Shown: positions 8,657 through 19,425, counted from the first letter of the stretch. The stretch is 64,000 nt of DNA from an uncultured delta proteobacterium (GCA_963769935.1 CAVYNY010000030.1:32001-96000), one strand, 5' to 3'. Numbers and translations: made by a program. The notes: a model not told the origin generated them from the letters alone.

Positions 8657-8711
8657 GTATCCTTGTATCCGATATTCACCATCCAGCATCCAGTATCCAC
8701 CATCCGGCATC
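8657..8711. repeat. Degenerate 7-bp tandem repeats (CATCCAG family)
   Basis: gtatccttgtatccgatattcaccatccagcatccagtatccaccatccggcatc between convergent genes. Confidence 0.7.
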
Positions 8712-9054
8712 AATCTCCTATCTTTTTCAGCACCTGACTTTCCTCGCCCTTGTCCATATCGTCCAGCGCATAGCCAAGTGCCGCCTCCAGGAGGGTAGAC
8801 TTGTTATCGATGGCAACACCGGCCAGCTTTAATTCGTGAAACTTGTGGTTAAACCGGTTGAGGAGATCAACGGAAAGATAAAATCCGGCTTTCTTTTTGG
8901 CCGCCGCTGGAACGGCTGGTCCGGTATTGGCTGCTGCTCCGGACGGCGCAGCATCGTCTTGCGGCAAATGCCGGGGATACCCTGTGGCGGTTTCCACCGG
9001 GTCCAACCCTTCTTCATCGAAAAAATCAGGTGTTTTTTTCCTTCCGGGCGCCAT
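8710..9054 (-). CDS. Small ParA-associated protein; disordered N-terminus and putative ribbon-helix-helix C-terminus
   Basis: Overlaps parA stop; KKKAGFYLSVDLLNRF...KSTLLEAAL has a beta-alpha-alpha pattern. Confidence 0.6.
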   Translation of the reverse strand: MAPGRKKTPDFFDEEGLDPVETATGYPRHLPQDDAAPSGAAANTGPAVPAAAKKKAGFYLSVDLLNRFNHKFHELKLAGVAIDNKSTLLEAALGYALDDMDKGEESQVLKKIGD

Positions 9055-9811
9055 GATTTATAATCCTCCTGATCAAATTTTGGTAATCCTGGGCGCCCTG
9101 GGCCCGGGCGTCGTATTCAAATATGGACTGCCCGTGGGCCGGGGCTTCGGACAAACGAACATTGTAGTGAATGGGATCGCATAGTTGCCGGTTGAAAAAT
9201 TTCTGAAGCTGTTCGAAAATTTCCTGGCTGTGCCGCGTTCTGCGATCAAACATCGTGGGCAATATGTATTCCAGCCGCAGATTGAGGTTTAATTTCTGGG
9301 CCGATTGCAGGTACCTGAAAAAAGTTTTTAAACCCTGCAGCGAAGGCCCCTGCAAGGCAACCGGACACAGGACTTCAGTTGCCGCCATGAGGATGTTGAC
9401 GCTCAGCACATCCCAGCCCGGCGCGCAATCAAAAATCAGAAAATCCAGCGAACCCTCTTTGGGAACCAGTTTTTGGGCCAGAACGGTTTGCCGAATCTCC
9501 CGGGACTGCTCCCCCAGCCAGTTTTTCAATTCCACCAGCCGGATACCGCCATCCAGAATCCAAAGGTTTGGCCGGGTTGGATGGATGGTATCGTTTTTAG
9601 AGATATGCTGCCCGTCTTCCAGATGCTCGGTAATGAATTCATAAAGTCCGTAGCTCGGTTTTTCGCCTAAAAATTTAGCGACCTGCCCTTGGGTATCGCA
9701 GTCGACGAGCAATACCCGCTTTCCCTGCGCGGCGAGCCCGCATGCCAGATTAACGGCAGTGGTGGTTTTCCCCACCCCGCCTTTGGCCATGGCAACAGCA
9801 ATTTTTCGCAT
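9026..9811 (-). CDS. parA: ParA/Soj-family ATPase (orphan)
   Basis: Deviant Walker A KGGVGKTTT, LVDCDTQG, IFDCAP, TMFDRR, VRLSEAP. Confidence 0.9.
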   Translation of the reverse strand: MRKIAVAMAKGGVGKTTTAVNLACGLAAQGKRVLLVDCDTQGQVAKFLGEKPSYGLYEFITEHLEDGQHISKNDTIHPTRPNLWILDGGIRLVELKNWLGEQSREIRQTVLAQKLVPKEGSLDFLIFDCAPGWDVLSVNILMAATEVLCPVALQGPSLQGLKTFFRYLQSAQKLNLNLRLEYILPTMFDRRTRHSQEIFEQLQKFFNRQLCDPIHYNVRLSEAPAHGQSIFEYDARAQGAQDYQNLIRRIINHGARKEKNT

Positions 9812-9966
9812 GCGGCAATTCCTTTTCTTATATTCTCGAACTCTTCTGTTCGTATATTATAGAATTATTCCTTAGATGACAAGCATATATGTACAATTTA
9901 ATTTTTTTCAGTTTGATTGAGTAGCAGGCATTCTGGAATCTCAGAGCTGAATGAAGAAGCAGATCA

Positions 9967-9995
9967 TAAGCTGTTAAGCTGATCAGCTGTTAAGC
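9967..9995. repeat. 8-bp tandem repeats (TAAGCTGT family)
   Basis: taagctgt taagctga tcagctgt taagc. Confidence 0.6.
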
Positions 9996-10016
9996 AAAAA
10001 GGAATAAGAATCAAAT

Positions 10017-10847
10017 TCATCTCTGCCCCGTAAGATAGTTTTGATCGAGACGGCCTTCTATAATCGGTAGCGTGTCAAGGGCGGGTGGATGGAAATGAAA
10101 AATATATTCTAAAAACAAGGCGGTAATTCGAAAGGTCGCACCCCAGAGAATTTCGATGCCGCTGCTGTTTTGGAACTGAAAGCAGGGATAGTCGCGGGTC
10201 AAATTCGATGGCTCTGCATCGGCAGGGATTTTCATATGCAAGCGATAGCACCTGTAATTTGCAGAATTCAACAATTCCTGCAGGGGGACATAGAGGATCT
10301 TATCAACTTCCCAATTCGGGAAAAACCGCTGCTGGCGCCGAACCCAGGTAACCATGGGGTATATTTTGCGCTGAAACATCACCAGTTTTTGGGGCGGCAA
10401 CGGACCCAGAAATTTGGCGCCGAAGGGATTTAACCGCATTTCTTCCAAACCTTCCCGCAAACCCGTGGCCCATAAAAGGGCCAGCATCCGGGCTGACTGC
10501 GGATGAACCCGTTTCCAGTGAGACCAGTAGGGCCAGCGGCCAAGAGATGTGATCGGCAGCGAAAAAAGTTTTGCCAGGGGCGCATCAAGGCGGGGAGTTA
10601 TGCTTCCGCCGGGGAAGCAAAGATCCCCGGGTTGCCTGACTCTTAATGATCTTTTGTTTAAAATCAGGCAGGGCTTAGCGGATCTATTTTTTTTACCACG
10701 CTCAAGTCCCAGCAACAGTAGTACACTGGCGCCGGTTTGCCGATTCAGCTCAGAGTCGGAAAATACTTTGGCGGCATCGGTTCGCTCATGCAGTCTGCGA
10801 ATAATTCGGCGAAGCAAGGCGGTCTTGTCGTTTAAAATCTGCAGCAT
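10017..10847 (-). CDS. NUDIX hydrolase, CoA-pyrophosphatase-like, with insertion in the Nudix box
   Basis: LNKRS..VRQPGDLCFPGG...TGLREGLEEM, PNWEV, ILWGAT. Confidence 0.8.
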   Translation of the reverse strand: MLQILNDKTALLRRIIRRLHERTDAAKVFSDSELNRQTGASVLLLLGLERGKKNRSAKPCLILNKRSLRVRQPGDLCFPGGSITPRLDAPLAKLFSLPITSLGRWPYWSHWKRVHPQSARMLALLWATGLREGLEEMRLNPFGAKFLGPLPPQKLVMFQRKIYPMVTWVRRQQRFFPNWEVDKILYVPLQELLNSANYRCYRLHMKIPADAEPSNLTRDYPCFQFQNSSGIEILWGATFRITALFLEYIFHFHPPALDTLPIIEGRLDQNYLTGQR

Positions 10848-10894
10848 GATCTTTTATGCCATTAATTCTCTTTCCCGGCAAGACCCGATCATGA

Positions 10895-11179
10895 ATGCGA
10901 GCTGCGGGTTGTGAGGTACGGGGTGCGTGTTGCGGGGTACGGGGTGCGAGGAATGGCATAGGGCATGGCGCAGAGCGTAAAAAGATGGAAGATGGGAGGG
11001 TGAGAGGTGAGAAAAAACTGGATAGGTGGGATGACGGAAAGATGGGTCTCCTGAATACTTAAGAGCTTACAAACTTAAGAGCTCACGAGCTTATGAACTT
11101 AACAGCTTACCAGCTTCCAGCCTCTGTCGTCTGTTTTCTGCCCTCTGTCGTCTGTTTTCTGTCCTCTGTCCTCTGGCAC
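10895..11179. repeat. Mosaic of 7- and 8-bp tandem repeat families
   Basis: Blocks of GGGTGCG/GGGTACG, GGCATAG, GAAGATGG, AAGAGCTT/ACGAGCTT and CTCTGTC/TTCTGTC. Confidence 0.75.
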
Positions 11180-12136
11180 CTAGAGCGACCGGATCTCTTG
11201 CCGCATGAACACGATGTAGGAGACTGCAAAACAAATGATGGTGACGGCGACCAGAGAAATAATGTAGGGGATGACGATCAGGATACTCTGACTCAAAGGC
11301 AGAGGACCTGAAAAGCGGGACATGGAAAGATTTTCCAGCGGACCCACTGAGATAATTGAGCGGGTGGATTTACGCATGGGATCGATAATGGTTGCGGTGG
11401 CGTCCGTATAAAGTTCCATAGGTGAAATAAGAGTCAGGGATTTTACAAATTTCGCTTGCTTCACGACGGCTTCCGGATTTTGCGGCGATGTATCACTGGC
11501 CAGGGCATTGGCGACAACATTGGCCCCGATTGTCACAAAAAACGAAAAAAAGATCCACAACGCCAACGACGCCAGGGCGGAGGTCGCCGTGCTGCGAAAA
11601 AATATGGAAAATAGAATAGCAACTCCCAGCCAGAAGGAGATATAGATGATACTGATAATTAAATAAATAATAATTCGCCAGATTTCTTCCATGCCGGGAA
11701 CGATACCCATGACAACCAGTCCCAGGCCGGTGATAACCAGCACAATGGACACCATCATGATGGCGATCATCACCACACCGGCCAAAAACTTGCCGTTGAT
11801 GACCACATCACGGTAAATGGGCTGGGAGAGCAGTTTGCTCAGAGTGCCCTCGTTACGCTCGCGGTTGATGGTGTCAAAACCCAGTATCAGTCCTACCAGG
11901 GGGCCGAAAAATGCCACGAACTGTACCAGCGAAAACATCGCTCCGGGAGCGGTAAATAGCATCAGAAAAATGAAGCGGGGTTTGGCAACGCCCTCCAGTT
12001 CATGTCGGATATTGAGGCCGACCATATAGGCGGTGATCAGGCTTACCATGGCAATCAAAGCAAATATGATGGTAAACCGATAGCTGCTGAAATGATCTGC
12101 CAGTTCTTTTTTAACGATGACGTTAACTCCGCTCAC
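11180..12136 (-). CDS. ABC-2 type exporter permease
   Basis: GTG start 12136 after GGAGG; KKELAD, GFDTINRERNEGTL..LLSQP..R...GKF; about 6 TM helices. Confidence 0.88.
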   Translation of the reverse strand: MSGVNVIVKKELADHFSSYRFTIIFALIAMVSLITAYMVGLNIRHELEGVAKPRFIFLMLFTAPGAMFSLVQFVAFFGPLVGLILGFDTINRERNEGTLSKLLSQPIYRDVVINGKFLAGVVMIAIMMVSIVLVITGLGLVVMGIVPGMEEIWRIIIYLIISIIYISFWLGVAILFSIFFRSTATSALASLALWIFFSFFVTIGANVVANALASDTSPQNPEAVVKQAKFVKSLTLISPMELYTDATATIIDPMRKSTRSIISVGPLENLSMSRFSGPLPLSQSILIVIPYIISLVAVTIICFAVSYIVFMRQEIRSL

Positions 12137-12138
12137 GG

Positions 12139-12891
12139 CTATGCCTCCTGGAAATATTTCATGTAAAGTTCTTCTAAGGTATACTTCTCCTGCCCGATGC
12201 CAAGTTTTTCCCGGGCCAGTCGGTCCATAGATCCATGAGCCACCATGCGGCCTTTGATCATGATGCCCACCCGATGGCAAATCCTTTGAACCTGATGCAG
12301 CATGTGGCTGGAGAGCAGAATCGTCATTTTTTTATCGCGGCATAAACCCTCAATCAACTCCATCATGCGGTTGGTCGCATCCGGATCCAAACCGAGGGTC
12401 GGCTCGTCCAGAAACGCCACTTTGGAATCTTTGATCAGCAGCTCGGCCAGACCGAGACGCTGCCGCATTCCCCGGGAGTAGGCGCCGATTTTTTTTAGCG
12501 ATTCGCTGGCCAATCCCACAGACTCAAGGGCGTTTTGAATGCGGCGGTCGGCATCGCCGCCCGAAATACCGTTCAAGTCGGCGACAAAACGCAGCATCTG
12601 GACGGCATTTAAGTCGTTGTAAAATCCCATGTTTTCCTGCAGATAGCCGATCTTCGATTTCACCTTGATCGGCTCCCGGGTGGGGTCGAGCCCCAGAACT
12701 TTGGCAGTGCCGCTGGTGGGCTCCGTCAAACCCAGCAGCATCAGCAGCGTGGTTGTTTTTCCGGCCCCGTTGGGACCCAGAAATCCAAAAATTTCACCTT
12801 CATTTACCGTAAAGGTAAGGTGATCCACGGCCGTAGCGCCGTTGTATATTTTAGTCAGCGCATCAGTTTCAATAATTGACCGGGTTTCCAT
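12139..12891 (-). CDS. ABC transporter ATP-binding protein
   Basis: GPNGAGKTT, YSRGMRQR, FLDEPT, SSH. Confidence 0.93.
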   Translation of the reverse strand: METRSIIETDALTKIYNGATAVDHLTFTVNEGEIFGFLGPNGAGKTTTLLMLLGLTEPTSGTAKVLGLDPTREPIKVKSKIGYLQENMGFYNDLNAVQMLRFVADLNGISGGDADRRIQNALESVGLASESLKKIGAYSRGMRQRLGLAELLIKDSKVAFLDEPTLGLDPDATNRMMELIEGLCRDKKMTILLSSHMLHQVQRICHRVGIMIKGRMVAHGSMDRLAREKLGIGQEKYTLEELYMKYFQEA

Positions 12892-12892
12892 T

Positions 12893-14107
12893 TCAGCGCC
12901 TTCCTATCCAGCGGAATGTGCCGAAAAGTCCGCCAATCACCGCCACAATGATACCGATGCCGATCCAGCCCCAGGCAGCCGAAGCCTTGACAGTGGTCCG
13001 AAACTCAATCATCTTCTGCGCTTTTTCGCCCTCGACATTGACACTGACCGAGTAGTCTCCCACCAGTGCATCTTCGTAAGGCGTGATGGATACTTCAACC
13101 TGCTTGAGATCACCGGGTTCGATGACGTCTATCTTCTCGGGAGTAAATTCAACCTTCCAGTTTTCAGGCTTAAAGGACATGAACTTGATGTTATGATTGG
13201 CGGCCGACCCGGTATTCTTGACATAGAAAGAAATATTGGCGGTTTTGCCCTGCCTGGCGTCCAGCGACAGCAGGCCGCTGGGCGTTCCGACTTCCAGACT
13301 GTAGGTACCGGTCAGAATGACCGCTAATTTTACTTCGCCCTTGGCGTCGCCGGAACTCACGCGGACATTGATCGGGTATTTACCGGCTGCAGCCATGGGG
13401 GGCGGCTTTACCTCAACCGCAATGGACTGGTTCTGATTCGGTTTCAGTCGCAGGCTGGTGATATACTTGCTTTCATAGGCCGGCTTGAAATTGATTTCCC
13501 AGTCTTTGGGACCGCTGGCGAAAAGATCAAAGACCGCGTCTTTGTCCAGTTTGCTGTCCACATCCACGGAGAACTCAAAGGTTGCATCAGAGGCTCCGCT
13601 TATCTCCGGGTAGGAGGTCGTCAGCTTAACCCCCCGGTCTGCCGTCGATTTTGCCTCCGCTGCGGTGACATCCACCTGGATATTCTGTGCCATCTTGAAT
13701 TCGCCGTCCTCGGTTTTGGCTTCAACCCGGAAGTTGTATTTTCCGGGTGTGACATCTTTGCCCGGCTCGGCTTCAAAAGTCAGGGTTTTGTCTTCGCCGC
13801 TCGGAACATAAACACCGGTCACGGTATAGCGGTAGGTTTTGATTTTAGCTTTCCAGCCTTTGGGAATCTCGGAAATCCAGACATCTGCAGTTTCACCGCT
13901 TTTACCCTTGTTGTGAAAGACAATATCCATGCTCACATTTTCATCCGGAGGCACGACAACACCCGGGTATTCGGCGGCCATGGAAAGGGATCTTGCGGGT
14001 CTGTCATCGGCTTTTTCAGTCGCAAAACAAATGCCCGCACTCAACACCAATGCGGAGACCAGCAGGGCTACGAATATAAGGTTGCGACCCGTTTTAGCAC
14101 AATTCAT
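12893..14107 (-). CDS. Exported NEW3 (NPCBM-associated)-like Ig-repeat protein with C-terminal membrane anchor
   Basis: AAGGAG RBS; signal peptide; three P.GW/DW/NW beta-sandwich repeats with G.Y; C-terminal WGWIGIGIIVAV...GRR. Confidence 0.75.
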   Translation of the reverse strand: MNCAKTGRNLIFVALLVSALVLSAGICFATEKADDRPARSLSMAAEYPGVVVPPDENVSMDIVFHNKGKSGETADVWISEIPKGWKAKIKTYRYTVTGVYVPSGEDKTLTFEAEPGKDVTPGKYNFRVEAKTEDGEFKMAQNIQVDVTAAEAKSTADRGVKLTTSYPEISGASDATFEFSVDVDSKLDKDAVFDLFASGPKDWEINFKPAYESKYITSLRLKPNQNQSIAVEVKPPPMAAAGKYPINVRVSSGDAKGEVKLAVILTGTYSLEVGTPSGLLSLDARQGKTANISFYVKNTGSAANHNIKFMSFKPENWKVEFTPEKIDVIEPGDLKQVEVSITPYEDALVGDYSVSVNVEGEKAQKMIEFRTTVKASAAWGWIGIGIIVAVIGGLFGTFRWIGRR

Positions 14108-14145
14108 TGGAAACTTCTCCTTTGCATATTTAATATGAATGCATC

Positions 14146-14176
14146 TCAAAGGGTGGTCATTCTGACCACCCTTTGA
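14146..14176. terminator. Perfect 14-bp hairpin downstream of groEL
   Basis: tcaaagggtggtca-ttc-tgaccaccctttga. Confidence 0.7.
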
Positions 14177-14212: not shown

Positions 14213-15853
<1,641 letters not shown>

Positions 15854-15856
15854 TTA

Positions 15857-16144
15857 CTATTCTAATACGCCGAGGATATCATCCTCGCTCATAAAAAGGT
15901 GTTCGACTCCGTCTATCTTAATTTCCGTTCCGGCATACTTGGAGAAAAGAATGTGATCGCCGACCTTAACATCCATCGGCGTTCGCTGGCCATCATCATC
16001 CATCTTGCCGGGACCGGCGGCTACAACTTTCCCACGCTGGGGTTTCTCCTTGGCAGTGTCCGGGATGATAATTCCCCCGGGACTTTTGGCTTCTTCGTCA
16101 ACTCGCAGAACTAAAAGACGATCATTGAGGGGTTTGATCTTCAT
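15857..16144 (-). CDS. groES: Co-chaperonin GroES
   Basis: [25 protein letters not shown]. Confidence 0.99.
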
Positions 16145-16320: not shown

Positions 16321-16347
16321 AATAGTTTTCATGCGTGTTCCGGCAAA

Positions 16348-16375
16348 AGTATAATCACCGTTGTAAACTTGTCAA
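16348..16375 (-). promoter_or_regulatory. Sigma70-type promoter for groES-groEL
   Basis: Minus strand TTGACA-16nt-TATACT about 200 nt upstream of groES. Confidence 0.6.
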
Positions 16376-16439
16376 GAGGCGGTACTACCGACACAATGAT
16401 GATATCTGAAATAAGTTTGGTAAACCTTCGAGCCGGGAC

Positions 16440-16825
16440 GGTGCGCTGCCGCGCCAGTTCACAGCTCGTAGCTGATGGCTCATAGGGAATAAGGAGGAAG
16501 GTGGAAAGCTCGGACGGTGGGAAGGTGAGGCGCTGGCGCGCCAGCTCATAGCTGAAAGGGAAAAGAAGGAACGTGGGATGGTGAGAGGGTAAGAAGCTAA
16601 GAAGGTTAGAAGATAAGAAGAGCAGAAGGTGAAAAAAACCGGATATTCACGGTCTCAATGCCTTTTTGCCGTGCGCCTTTATCCTTTGGCCTTTATCCTT
16701 TAACCTTTTACCTATCAACCATCAGCTCCGACCTATCAACCGGTGCCCCAACGCCGCCCCGCAATGTGCAACCCGCTACCCGTATTCAATATTCAATCTT
16801 AAATCTTCAGTCTTCAATATCTTCA
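16440..16825. repeat. Mosaic of 7- and 8-bp tandem repeat families
   Basis: Duplicated gcgctg.cgcgccag.tca.agct; AGAAGNTA octamers; CCTTTAT, CAACCCG and TATTCAA/TCTTCAA heptamers. Confidence 0.75.
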
Positions 16826-18172
16826 AACGACTCCCTGATCCAGCATGGCCTCCGCCACTTTCACAAAACCGGTAATGTTGGCGCCGTTTAAATAGTTGCC
16901 CGGAGTACCGTATTCCTCGGCCGCGTCCAGACAGGATTGGTGAATCCCTTTCATGATAATCTTCAATCGTTCATCCACTTCTTCTGCGAGCCAGTTCAGG
17001 CGCATGCTGTTTTGAACCATTTCAAGGCCGGATACCGCAACACCGCCGGCATTGGCCGCTTTGCCGGGTGCATACAGCAGGGGTTTATCCAGAAAGATAT
17101 CGATGGCTTCGGGGGTGCAGGGCATATTGGCACCTTCGCATACCAGTTTGACATTGTTGTTGATAAGATTGTAGGCATCTTTTTCAGCGATCTCGTTCTG
17201 GGTGGCACAGGGAAACGCACAGGTGGCCCGATGATACCACAACGGGTTGTAATCCAGACTGTGGTCAACCGGGGTGTACACGGCGCTGCTGAACTTGTCG
17301 GCATATTCCTGAATTCTTCCGCGCCGGACATTTTTCAGCACTTTCACGTAGGCCAGCTTTTGAGCGTCGATCCCGTCAGGATCATAAATATATCCGGATG
17401 AATCAGAGAGGGTGACCACTTTGGCACCCATTTCGATGAGCTTTTCCGCAGTATGCTGGGCCACATTACCGGAGCCGGAAACCAGACATATCCGGCCGTC
17501 AAAAGTCATATTGCGGGTGGCCAGCATTTCGGCGGCAAAATAGACACAACCGTAGCCGGCTGCCTGGGCGCGGATCAGACTGCCGCCCCAATTAAGGCCT
17601 TTGCCCGTCAGCGCGCCGGTAAACTCGTTGTTCAACTTTTTGAACATGCCGAATAGATAGCCGATCTCCCTGGATCCGACCCCAATATCGCCGGCAACGA
17701 TATCCGTATTGGCACCGATATGAAGGTAAAGCTCGGTCATAAAATTCTGGCAAAACCGCATCATTTCGCCATCCGACTTGCCTTTGGGATCGAAATCGGA
17801 CCCTCCGGCGCCTCCTCCCAGCGGCAAGGTCGTCAGGGCATTTTTAAAGACCTGCTCGAAAGCCAAAAATTTCAGGATGCTTTGATTGACGGAGGGATGA
17901 AAACGTAAGCCGCTTTTATACGGTCCGATGGCACTGTTCATCTCCACGAGGTACCCGCGATTGACCTTTACGTTTCCCACGTCATCCAGCCAGGGCACCC
18001 GAAAAGTAACGATCCGCTCGGGTTCGACGATCCTTTCCACGATGGCCGCCCGATGGTATTGGGGATTTTGATCCAGCACCGGTTTGACGCTGTCCACAAC
18101 TTCAGTTACGGCTTGATAAAATTCTTTTTCATGGGGATCTCTTGCCTTTATGGTTTCCAGAATCGTGGACAT
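16823..18172 (-). CDS. gdhA: NADP-type glutamate dehydrogenase homolog with degenerate active site
   Basis: Full-length GdhA (FRVPW, LRFHPSVN, FEQVFKNAL, GSGNVA, PCATQNE, EGANMP, KAANAGGV), but GGGAGG replaces GGGKGG. Confidence 0.88.
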   Translation of the reverse strand: MSTILETIKARDPHEKEFYQAVTEVVDSVKPVLDQNPQYHRAAIVERIVEPERIVTFRVPWLDDVGNVKVNRGYLVEMNSAIGPYKSGLRFHPSVNQSILKFLAFEQVFKNALTTLPLGGGAGGSDFDPKGKSDGEMMRFCQNFMTELYLHIGANTDIVAGDIGVGSREIGYLFGMFKKLNNEFTGALTGKGLNWGGSLIRAQAAGYGCVYFAAEMLATRNMTFDGRICLVSGSGNVAQHTAEKLIEMGAKVVTLSDSSGYIYDPDGIDAQKLAYVKVLKNVRRGRIQEYADKFSSAVYTPVDHSLDYNPLWYHRATCAFPCATQNEIAEKDAYNLINNNVKLVCEGANMPCTPEAIDIFLDKPLLYAPGKAANAGGVAVSGLEMVQNSMRLNWLAEEVDERLKIIMKGIHQSCLDAAEEYGTPGNYLNGANITGFVKVAEAMLDQGVV

Positions 18173-18229
18173 TTCACCTCCCTGTCAGGATAAAATTTTA
18201 CCCCGGCGAAATTAAAATTCATCACATAA

Positions 18230-18484
18230 TCAGGCTTTCGTGTAAACCCCTTTCTCCAGAGTCTTAATTTTGCCCTGTTTCTTGAGTTTGAAAATTATGT
18301 TGGCAACTTTTTTCTGGTTATAGCCTGTCTTTTCTTTGATGGCAGCGGTACCCGCACCTTTTTTGGCGCGGCCGATGACCGTCAGTACTGCGTCGGCGGC
18401 GGTGGTGGGAGACTTGACAGTTTTGTTATTTGCTACTGATAAAAATTGGCCACCATATCTGGGGCCACCTTTGCTTCTCGGCAA
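18230..18484 (-). pseudogene. Lys-rich winged-helix (nucleoid-protein-like) C-terminal domain, apparently lacking its N-terminus
   Basis: TAADAVLTVIGRAKKG..TAAIKEKTGY..KKVANIIFKLKKQGKIK...GVY; weak start, N-terminal part looks non-coding. Confidence 0.5.
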
Positions 18485-18576
18485 GTATCGTCATATTTTA
18501 CTGGTTTGTCAATCTAATTAATCCGCCGTGAAAAATAGCACTTCCAGGGTTGCGAATTGATCTTTGAAATCGGAGT

Positions 18577-19425
18577 TTACCGGCAGGCAACGACTATTCC
18601 GGACCATAACTCTTCAAATCTTTTCCAGGGCCACTTCTTGCGGCCCGATGATATTGGGTCGCCGACGACCAGAAATTTCGCATTCGTTTCCAACACACAA
18701 ACCATCTGATTCGTTTGGTAGGAAAATTTTATTCCGGCAAGAAAAGGTTTGGCTATATGGCGCAGGTCTTTTAATTCGGGGACCATCAGGGTAACTCGCT
18801 CCGGTCGTCCAAGCTGCCGGAGTTTCTTTTGAAGACCATAGGCTGCCTGTTGGGGAGACACTCCCGCCCGCGGCGCCGTCATGGACAATCCCGCCATTTC
18901 ACCCTCGGTGGCCTTTATCCCCATCGCATTCAACAGGGTGGTCATTGCGGCAGCACCGCAGGTCTCAAACGAACTCTGCCGGCATACACCGTCCACCATC
19001 GTTCCCCTGTAACCATAGATTAGCGGCTTCCCGAGGTGCCAGAAAGTCTGTTGAACAACAACCAGGAATAGTATAACTACCGTAATTAAAACTGCACGAC
19101 GGTTCCGCCGCGGGACGAGATGACTGATAAAGGCAAAAAAGAGAACCGTAAAAGGAAGCCAAAAATCCTTTTGAATTACGGCGTATACGTCGATCGGCAT
19201 AAGGCGCGCCTCGAGCAGAGGGAAAATTGAAAAAATCAATTTCAAAAAAATCGGCAGGAGGGCCAGCAAGGCACCTGCCATTGCCCATTTTCGGCGACCC
19301 ATGTGAACGCGGTTCTTCTGTGGGGTGACGGGTAAAGACGGGTTCTTATTCGATATCGGCACAAAGGCTATAATTGCTGAAATAAAAGCCGTAGCTGTGA
19401 TGATAAAAAATATATTAGGCGCCAT
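18577..19425 (-). CDS. Membrane protein with C-terminal C39 peptidase-like domain
   Basis: About 4 TM helices, then RQSSFETCGAAA, EGEMA, VVGDP..G, W..FEELWSG. Confidence 0.7.
   Translation of the reverse strand: MAPNIFFIITATAFISAIIAFVPISNKNPSLPVTPQKNRVHMGRRKWAMAGALLALLPIFLKLIFSIFPLLEARLMPIDVYAVIQKDFWLPFTVLFFAFISHLVPRRNRRAVLITVVILFLVVVQQTFWHLGKPLIYGYRGTMVDGVCRQSSFETCGAAAMTTLLNAMGIKATEGEMAGLSMTAPRAGVSPQQAAYGLQKKLRQLGRPERVTLMVPELKDLRHIAKPFLAGIKFSYQTNQMVCVLETNAKFLVVGDPISSGRKKWPWKRFEELWSGIVVACR

Follow-up and report, generated by a model that had tools for sequence, protein, structure and literature searches.

The window analysed here, a stretch of 64,000 nucleotides from an uncultured delta proteobacterium (genome G000), encodes a full-length homologue of NADP-type glutamate dehydrogenase (GDH), P0001, in which an alanine occupies the place of the catalytic lysine. 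P0001 is a real and selected protein, and likely a non-catalytic one. The open reading frame runs from 18172 to 16823 on the minus strand and encodes 449 aa with zero internal stops; Ala122 aligns with K128 of the E. coli enzyme. The GGGAGG, YKSG, DIVAGD and RAQAAGYG motifs, the intact GSGNVA motif and the full ORF that the first-pass annotation had listed were all confirmed in the sequence. P0001 and its relatives are referred to below as clade P1. The features, with E. coli equivalents in brackets, are as follows.

18230..18484, minus strand: 84-aa basic ORF upstream of P0001, equivalent to the C-terminal part of a protein that has 136 aa in relatives.
18175..18182, minus strand: Shine-Dalgarno-like GGGAGGTG, immediately 5' of the P0001 ATG, read from the sequence.
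16823..18172, minus strand: P0001, lysine-less GDH paralogue of clade P1, an intact 449-aa NADP-type GDH homologue with a PRK09414 match.
17915..17917, minus strand: Lys86 (K92), gamma-carboxylate ligand according to the accessible text of PMC12301742, kept in 82/82 clade sequences.
17882..17884, minus strand: Gln97 (L103), clade-fixed in the clade alignment, signature NQSILKF.
17843..17854, minus strand: Gln107 and Lys110 (Q113, K116), alpha-carboxylate ligands according to the same accessible text, each kept in 82/82.
17807..17809, minus strand: codon GCC for Ala122 instead of the catalytic lysine (K128), by alignment; the plus strand reads ggc.
17687..17698, minus strand: V159-A160-G161-D162 loop; D162 (D168, imine-binding Asp) is kept and the preceding three positions are relaxed.
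17570..17572, minus strand: Arg201 (R207), substrate and nicotinamide-ribose ligand, kept in 82/82.
17558..17566, minus strand: QAA at 203-205, with E209Q and T211A, clade-fixed in 82/82.
17459..17476, minus strand: Rossmann motif GSGNVA at 233-238, intact in the sequence and the clade alignment.
17030..17032, minus strand: Ser381 (S380), gamma-carboxylate ligand, kept in 82/82.

P0001 scores 706 bits against the NCBIfam model for NADP-GDH (PRK09414), above the cut-off of 536, and carries the PF02812 and PF00208 domains with full-length homology to NADP-specific hexameric GDH. Among solved structures it is closest to the GDH chains of Corynebacterium and of the E. coli type (E ~1e-161). In length, domains, Rossmann motif, carboxylate ligands, Asp168 and 2'-phosphate contacts it resembles the hexameric NADP-GDHs of E. 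coli (GdhA, 4BHT/3SBO), C. glutamicum (5IJZ/5GUD) and S. pombe (Gdh1), whereas in P1 K128, T211, E209 and L103 are replaced and G93, G94, G129, P165, A166 and G167 are relaxed. Proteins of this type are automatically annotated as NADP-specific GDH. Since P0001 lacks the catalytic lysine, it should not be filed as an active GDH despite its family membership. The AlphaFold2 model of P0001, built with a 68-row clade alignment, reached a pLDDT of 49 and a pTM of 0.37, too low to be used.

After de-duplication at 95%, 82 P1 sequences were set against 45 canonical sequences, excluding P0006, L087 and L121 from the first set and five distant rows from the second; the two sets are similar in spread (mean identity 82% and 80%). 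Four switches are fixed in all 82 P1 sequences: K128 to A, S or G (75, 6 and 1 sequences, with no lysine), T211A, E209Q and L103Q. The lysine is invariant in 53/53 canonical rows, and position 211 is alanine in 82/82 P1 and threonine in 45/45 canonical sequences. Mutagenesis of the catalytic lysine of GDH was reportedly carried out by McPherson in 1988 and Cho in 2001. Around these switches, G93, G94, G129, P165, A166, G167 and P208 are relaxed, and the cavity varies at G93 (S/G/T), G94 (G/A/S), P165 (six states), A166 (A/T/G/S) and G167 (G/P/S). YKSG, DIVAGD and the A of RAQ are not constant within the clade. Canonical-invariant positions are changed or relaxed at 10/19 sites in four active-site loops, which were chosen post hoc, versus 16/207 elsewhere. 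Q97, Q203, C209, H240, Y334 and V386 are residues newly fixed in the clade. The charged positions 75, 150 and 265, canonical-invariant and outside the active site, are lost in P1, which might alter its subunit contacts.

In the accessible text of PMC12301742, S. pombe Gdh1 with 2-iminoglutarate and NADP+ contacts the alpha-carboxylate through the equivalents of Q113, K116, K128 and N348, the gamma-carboxylate through those of K92, R207 and S380, the imine through that of D168, and the NADP 2'-phosphate through those of S264, K136 and K286, the transfer to E. coli numbering being ours. All 82 P1 sequences carry K92, R96, Q113, K116, K136, D168, R207, N242, D263, S264, V377 and S380; K286 (K280 in P0001) is invariant in 68 aligned rows, and N348 is kept in 70/82, with serine in the other 12/82. 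By alignment, P1 keeps all the predicted substrate and NADP ligands equivalent to those of Gdh1 except K128, with N348 in 70/82. The first-pass annotation stated that this lysine forms the Schiff base, which is overstated, as ammonia attacks 2-oxoglutarate directly and the equivalent Lys113 binds the alpha-carboxylate in the accessible text of PMC12301742. As to catalysis, the parts available of PMC8784811 describe the equivalent lysine as the key catalytic residue, and those of PMC1716157 describe the third lysine as catalytic rather than binding and, in a published model, place the threonine equivalent to T211 near the nicotinamide C4.

A related sub-clade, P4, is more degenerate than P1: besides K128 it has lost K116, N242 and mostly S380. 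Because P4 has lost them, these three residues are not needed for the fold alone or in a retained lysine-less GDH, and their invariance in P1 therefore points to ligand binding. A point against this is that two divergent relatives (L154 and L192) have K92 replaced by serine.

Loss of the lysine extends across the clade. Among the best 120 of 8000 homologues scored, 118 of the 119 other than P0001 itself (80-96% identity) carry A, S or G at the site, and the only one to keep the lysine is P0006 (68% identity, 653 aa). This agrees with the first-pass view that the substitution is no simple error, and a sequencing error is ruled out on the same count. The codon argument made there, three changes from a lysine codon, is true of the GCC of P0001 but not of its relatives, whose alanine codons include GCA and GCG, only two changes away; three different alanine codons are used at the site within the clade. 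A pattern derived from residues 195-208, outside which the lysine position lies, was scanned against GTDB and found 34 loci, mostly from Desulfobacterales. The pattern-bearing gene lacks the lysine in 32/32 loci that cover position 122, the other two being truncated. Within the genus, 21/23 genomes carry P1 (five partial and one, that of G008, frameshifted). The lysine-less motif matched 34/401 genomes of the order, from nine genera, and gave no match in 400 other genomes of the phylum sample, only 14 of them from the same order and with no positive control among them; both counts are lower bounds, as the pattern misses variants such as DFEPK.

Lysine-less GDHs were also found further afield. 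In a metagenome scan for the motif, 80 of the 120 matching stretches were analysed; four contain a canonical and lysine-less tandem, of which three come from lineages unrelated to P1, while a divergent, eukaryote-like family whose genes are mostly intron-split accounts for 18. This NADP-GDH family (L148, L176, L197 and 15 mostly intron-split loci) has K92R, K128A/G and mostly D168E, and we take it to resemble a plant NADP-GDH-like gene. Three metagenome contigs (L136, L205 and L208) carry unrelated tandems of a canonical and a lysine-less gene (K to Q, K to E and K to A), 47-58% identical to P0001. In genome G051 (L077, L087, L089 and L255), a canonical NADP-type GDH is accompanied by a P1-like copy, by one with K to H, and by a short-type GDH that adjoins a receiver/dikinase-like gene. 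On a 75-row FastTree, the state of the lysine needs 7 changes, at least 6 of them forced by strong branches. As reconstructed from these sequences, the lysine is lost independently at least six to seven times, to different residues.

We then estimated dN/dS by pairwise Nei-Gojobori among the sequences of the genus. The median is 0.066 for P1 (15 sequences, 101/105 pairs unsaturated), 0.047 for the canonical gene (17 sequences) and 0.064 for P2, a second lysine-less GDH described below (12 sequences); in the ten closest P1 pairs (dS 0.2-0.7) it lies between 0.04 and 0.10. P1 is under purifying selection. Its median dN is 0.104 versus 0.063 for GdhA, and P1 is the higher in 55/55 matched, non-independent genome pairs. 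A frameshift affects the P1 copy of G008 and likewise the canonical copies of G001 and G017. Decay of a pseudogene is ruled out by a dN/dS of about 0.07 and the clade-wide loss. The first-pass annotation had suggested a search for orthologs sharing the loss of the lysine and a dN/dS estimate, with substitutions unique to this genome and relaxed selection as one result that would speak against a pseudoenzyme; we find the loss in the whole clade, under purifying selection.

A near-identical P1 sequence is present in four metatranscriptomes from sediment, all of one study, in which the strains differ from G000 by about 1%. One RNA contig covers 16790-18405 with 14 differences, and P1 and canonical gdhA are both covered by contigs in 4/4 RNA runs, a matter of presence only, with neither level nor strand. 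The bins 16331-16517 and 18575-19135 are uncovered, which provides a weak control against DNA carry-over. The 3' part of the upstream 84-aa ORF shares one RNA contig with P1, and a promoter and terminator scan for the P1 gene gave nothing convincing. Downstream of P1, positions 16500-16830 contain short purine-rich or AT-rich repeated units (agaag..., ttatcct..., ttcaat...) of the sort also seen on either side of canonical gdhA, and RNA contigs joined there; they are probably a family of intergenic repeats.

A canonical gdhA had been proposed as something to look for in the genome, and one was found. By tblastn, G000 contains a second full-length GDH at C22:261913-263259, 74% identical to P0001, with YKGG, GGGKGG, DVPAGD and RPEATGYG all intact. 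It lies on a different contig from P1 and next to no other gdh gene; its neighbours are a GGDEF-like gene, so called after a motif recognised by eye, and a gene for a membrane protein. The genome also has a third, distant GDH match (C13, 32%, 638 aa) and ordinary glutamate synthase genes. Among the 23 genomes of the genus, the canonical gene is present in 21 and both genes in 19, so that 19/21 P1-bearing genomes hold canonical gdhA; outside the genus this is true of 11/11 P1-lineage genomes at least 90% complete. When genomes bearing a lysine-less gene were re-searched, 19/27 had the canonical motif, including 15/16 of high quality. Neither a canonical gene nor its motif turned up in four P1-bearing genomes that are 82-87% complete (G007, G011, G598 and G707); G011 has only a C-terminal piece of a canonical-looking GDH and G007 (82% complete) has none. 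Because some GDH is present in 57/61 sampled genomes of the order, this co-occurrence is weak as support.

Trees were built with FastTree and, on 34 rows with the motif columns removed, with IQ-TREE, whose bootstrap had not fully settled. In the latter, P1, P4, L087 and L121 form one clade (100/99), which groups (88/99) with canonical enzymes of other families and not with the GdhA of its own genome; P1/P4 is therefore an old paralogue. P1 and P2 may or may not share one origin: they fall together with a support of 77 in FastTree and in 22% of the bootstrap trees of the 34-row IQ-TREE. P4 genes lie 30-180 bp behind canonical gdhA in L100, L102, L108 and L110 (GTDB) and in L169, and L258 has the same arrangement. 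A receiver/dikinase-like gene of about 1000 aa follows P4 in L100 and L102, and genes for 2-oxoacid:ferredoxin oxidoreductase-like subunits, identified by eye, lie upstream of gdhA-P4 in L102, L108 and L110. G000 itself has two receiver/dikinase-like genes (C16:32368-35274 and C18:199828-202783), of a type usually beside gdh but in this genome linked to none; the one on C18 seems to carry a frameshift near residue 353.

Linkage to gdhA was absent from the P1 loci examined, and no neighbour common to the whole P1 clade was found in the loci compared. The neighbours vary by lineage: Nudix-like and ParA genes, an ABC transporter, groES-groEL or a small basic protein. Where Nudix/ParA or ABC genes adjoin P1, this looks like plain synteny that extends over one or two families. 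In the window, positions 8710-14149 (minus strand) encode a NEW3-domain protein, an ABC ATPase and a permease, then a Nudix-like protein (276 aa), ParA and a 114-aa small protein; many relatives have parts of this block immediately next to P1. The groES-groEL genes (14213-16144, minus strand; best sigma-70-like match nearby at 16375-16348) follow P1 in the same direction, likewise in L147 and L179, and follow a P1-type gene in a second family (L087, L162, L186, L279, L282 and L284); this adjacency is either ancestral synteny or coincidence. The 84-aa ORF at 18230-18484 matches only residues 71-136 of the 136-aa protein found upstream of P1 in relatives, and at least five copies of its family occur in G000. 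Its C-terminal 66 aa gave no Pfam match; the product looks like a small DNA-binding protein and is probably a mere neighbour of P1.

The second lysine-less GDH, P2 (K128Q, D168G, N348D), occurs in 13/23 genomes of the genus, with stops interrupting one copy. In 13/14 distinct loci a gene for a 527-aa PF01645 flavoprotein precedes it by about 50-75 bp; in the broken 14th locus a fragment of the flavoprotein gene lies further upstream. The flavoprotein is glutamate-synthase-like and highly conserved, with an N-terminal CxxCxxxCxxxC motif (one locus of the pair is L044:349-3337, on G012:C648), and it also neighbours other K to Q lineages (L138, L152, L158, L160, L195, L204, L280, L281, L283 and L285). 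Neither P2 nor a homologue of this flavoprotein was found in G000. Genome G749 (100% complete) has a flavoprotein-linked lysine-less copy and no match to the canonical motif. A complex prediction of P2 with the flavoprotein (L044) gave no answer (0.00) and was counted neither for nor against binding.

According to the accessible portions of PMC9570180 and bioRxiv 2025.10.31.685773, GdhA of Thermus thermophilus is the inactive regulatory subunit of a GdhA/GdhB hetero-hexamer (PDB 3AOE). The first-pass annotation drew a parallel with this protein. The regulatory precedent holds, as far as the text of PMC9570180 was available, but P0001 is not an orthologue: it matches chain 3aoe_E, taken as GdhA from its 4-chain count, with E 7.9e-37 versus 1e-161 for NADP-type chains. 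The two belong to different GDH subfamilies, so that P0001, a member of the E. coli-type NADP family, would resemble Thermus GdhA by convergence. Both are full-length GDH paralogues found beside a catalytic paralogue in one genome, and for P0001 too a non-catalytic regulatory role is proposed. Unlike Thermus GdhA, P1 is unlinked to its 74%-identical putative partner, adjacency being found only in the related P4. The gdhA gene of Thermus presumably adjoins that of its catalytic partner, and the work on the GdhA/GdhB pair is said to be that of Tomita in 2010, 2011 and 2019. Another contrast given with Thermus GdhA is that P1 keeps the substrate and NADP pocket except K128.

In B. subtilis, the GudB-GltAB counter-enzyme complex uses the GDH hexamer as a regulation platform through protein contact, according to the accessible part of bioRxiv 2021.04.12.439528. 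Within that limit it is a possible analogue for P2 beside the gene of the glutamate-synthase-like flavoprotein. Unlike GudB, an active NAD-type enzyme that is inhibited, the lysine-less GDHs themselves lack the catalytic residue, and G000 has neither P2 nor the flavoprotein. Drosophila Bb8 was considered as a precedent and rejected, as the available text of PMC10652781 describes it as active. We found no description of a lysine-less NADP-type GDH in Desulfobacterales in the literature covered, from which subscription journals were mostly absent, and no bacterial GDH with an inactive subunit other than that of Thermus in the accessible literature.

With K128 and T211 both missing and with relaxed loops at the amine site, P0001 very probably has no GDH turnover. 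It probably still binds 2-oxoglutarate or glutamate and NADP(H), and we see an even chance that it is a ligand-binding, non-catalytic subunit that co-assembles with GdhA and tunes it, in convergence with Thermus GdhA. P0001, with no turnover of its own, would bind 2-oxoglutarate or glutamate with NADP(H) as a dead-end complex, upon which the cleft would close; it would enter mixed hexamers with the 74%-identical GdhA, where the activity of the catalytic subunits would depend on whether P0001 is open or closed, or on how much of the hexamer it makes up. In favour of this reading are the clade-wide loss under purifying selection, the invariant ligand residues, the canonical gene in the same genome, the P4 and unrelated tandems, the coverage of both genes in the RNA runs and the Thermus precedent. 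Against it, P1 is unlinked to gdhA and is not the sister of its own genome's GdhA, the canonical gene was missed in four P1-bearing genomes, and the three charged positions outside the active site are lost. The lack of linkage also favours a stand-alone pseudoenzyme sensor or scaffold, a rather unlikely reading in which P0001 forms its own hexamer, binds the same ligands and signals to a protein other than GdhA, such as a regulator, glutamate synthase or the receiver/dikinase-like protein frequent beside gdh genes. Since P2 lies behind the flavoprotein gene in the same genus and G749 lacks a canonical motif match, lysine-less GDHs can have non-GDH partners; in addition, a receiver/dikinase-like gene follows P4 in two loci, two such genes exist in G000, and GDH scaffolds GltAB in B. 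subtilis (accessible part of bioRxiv 2021.04.12.439528). On the other hand, the 527-aa flavoprotein lacks a homologue in G000, P1 has no neighbour common to all of its clade and the related P4 sits directly after gdhA.

It is improbable that P0001 has become a new enzyme, an opine-like or N-alkyl-glutamate-like dehydrogenase or a 2-oxoacid reductase, with the cavity left by the lysine taking another amine or a pre-formed imine to be reduced via D168 and NADPH. The invariant carboxylate ligands, D168 and cofactor site and the several novel clade-fixed residues would suit such a reaction, and the available text of PMC8784811 reports that few mutations re-purpose the pocket of E. coli GDH, at different residues. 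However, variability is greatest among the residues around the cavity, which is not what a new catalytic site would show. In addition, T211 is gone, P1 has no conserved pathway gene beside it, and the repeated losses of the lysine led to different residues. A passive subunit, controlled through its expression and with no ligand sensing, whose only effect on GdhA hexamers is dilution, stabilisation or inhibition, would agree with the lost catalysis, with the strong conservation overall and with a gene transcribed from its own locus, but it leaves unexplained the invariance of the ligand side chains over 82 sequences, which P4 shows to be dispensable; we think it more improbable still. Least probable of all is that P0001 is a slow GDH, a sequencing error or a decaying pseudogene. 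The automatic annotation as NADP-specific GDH, the higher dN of P1 in the 55/55 non-independent pairs and the frameshifted copy of G008 speak for it; the clade-wide loss, the three alanine codons, the dN/dS of about 0.07 and the frameshifts in canonical copies of G001 and G017 speak against error or decay, and the invariance in 53/53 canonical rows of a lysine described as catalytic speaks against slow turnover.

It is possible, though doubtful, that some Desulfobacterales control their glutamate metabolism with a kit of such proteins, with active GdhA, P1 as a reader of 2-oxoglutarate/glutamate and NADP(H) in mixed hexamers and P2 serving a stand-alone glutamate-synthase-like flavoprotein. 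With at least six independent losses of the lysine, dead GDH subunits would on that view be a widespread means of regulation that has been overlooked, demonstrated first in the NADP family of the E. coli type, and regulators would make up many of the proteins now called NADP-specific GDH. Bacterial NADP-GDHs are treated as homohexamers. If P1 works as proposed, uncultured sediment Desulfobacterales would have evolved inactive regulatory subunits anew, within the main family of biosynthetic GDHs. The P1-GdhA pair offers a natural probe of communication between GDH subunits, and naming lysine-less proteins NADP-specific GDH inflates the capacity for ammonium assimilation inferred from metagenomes.
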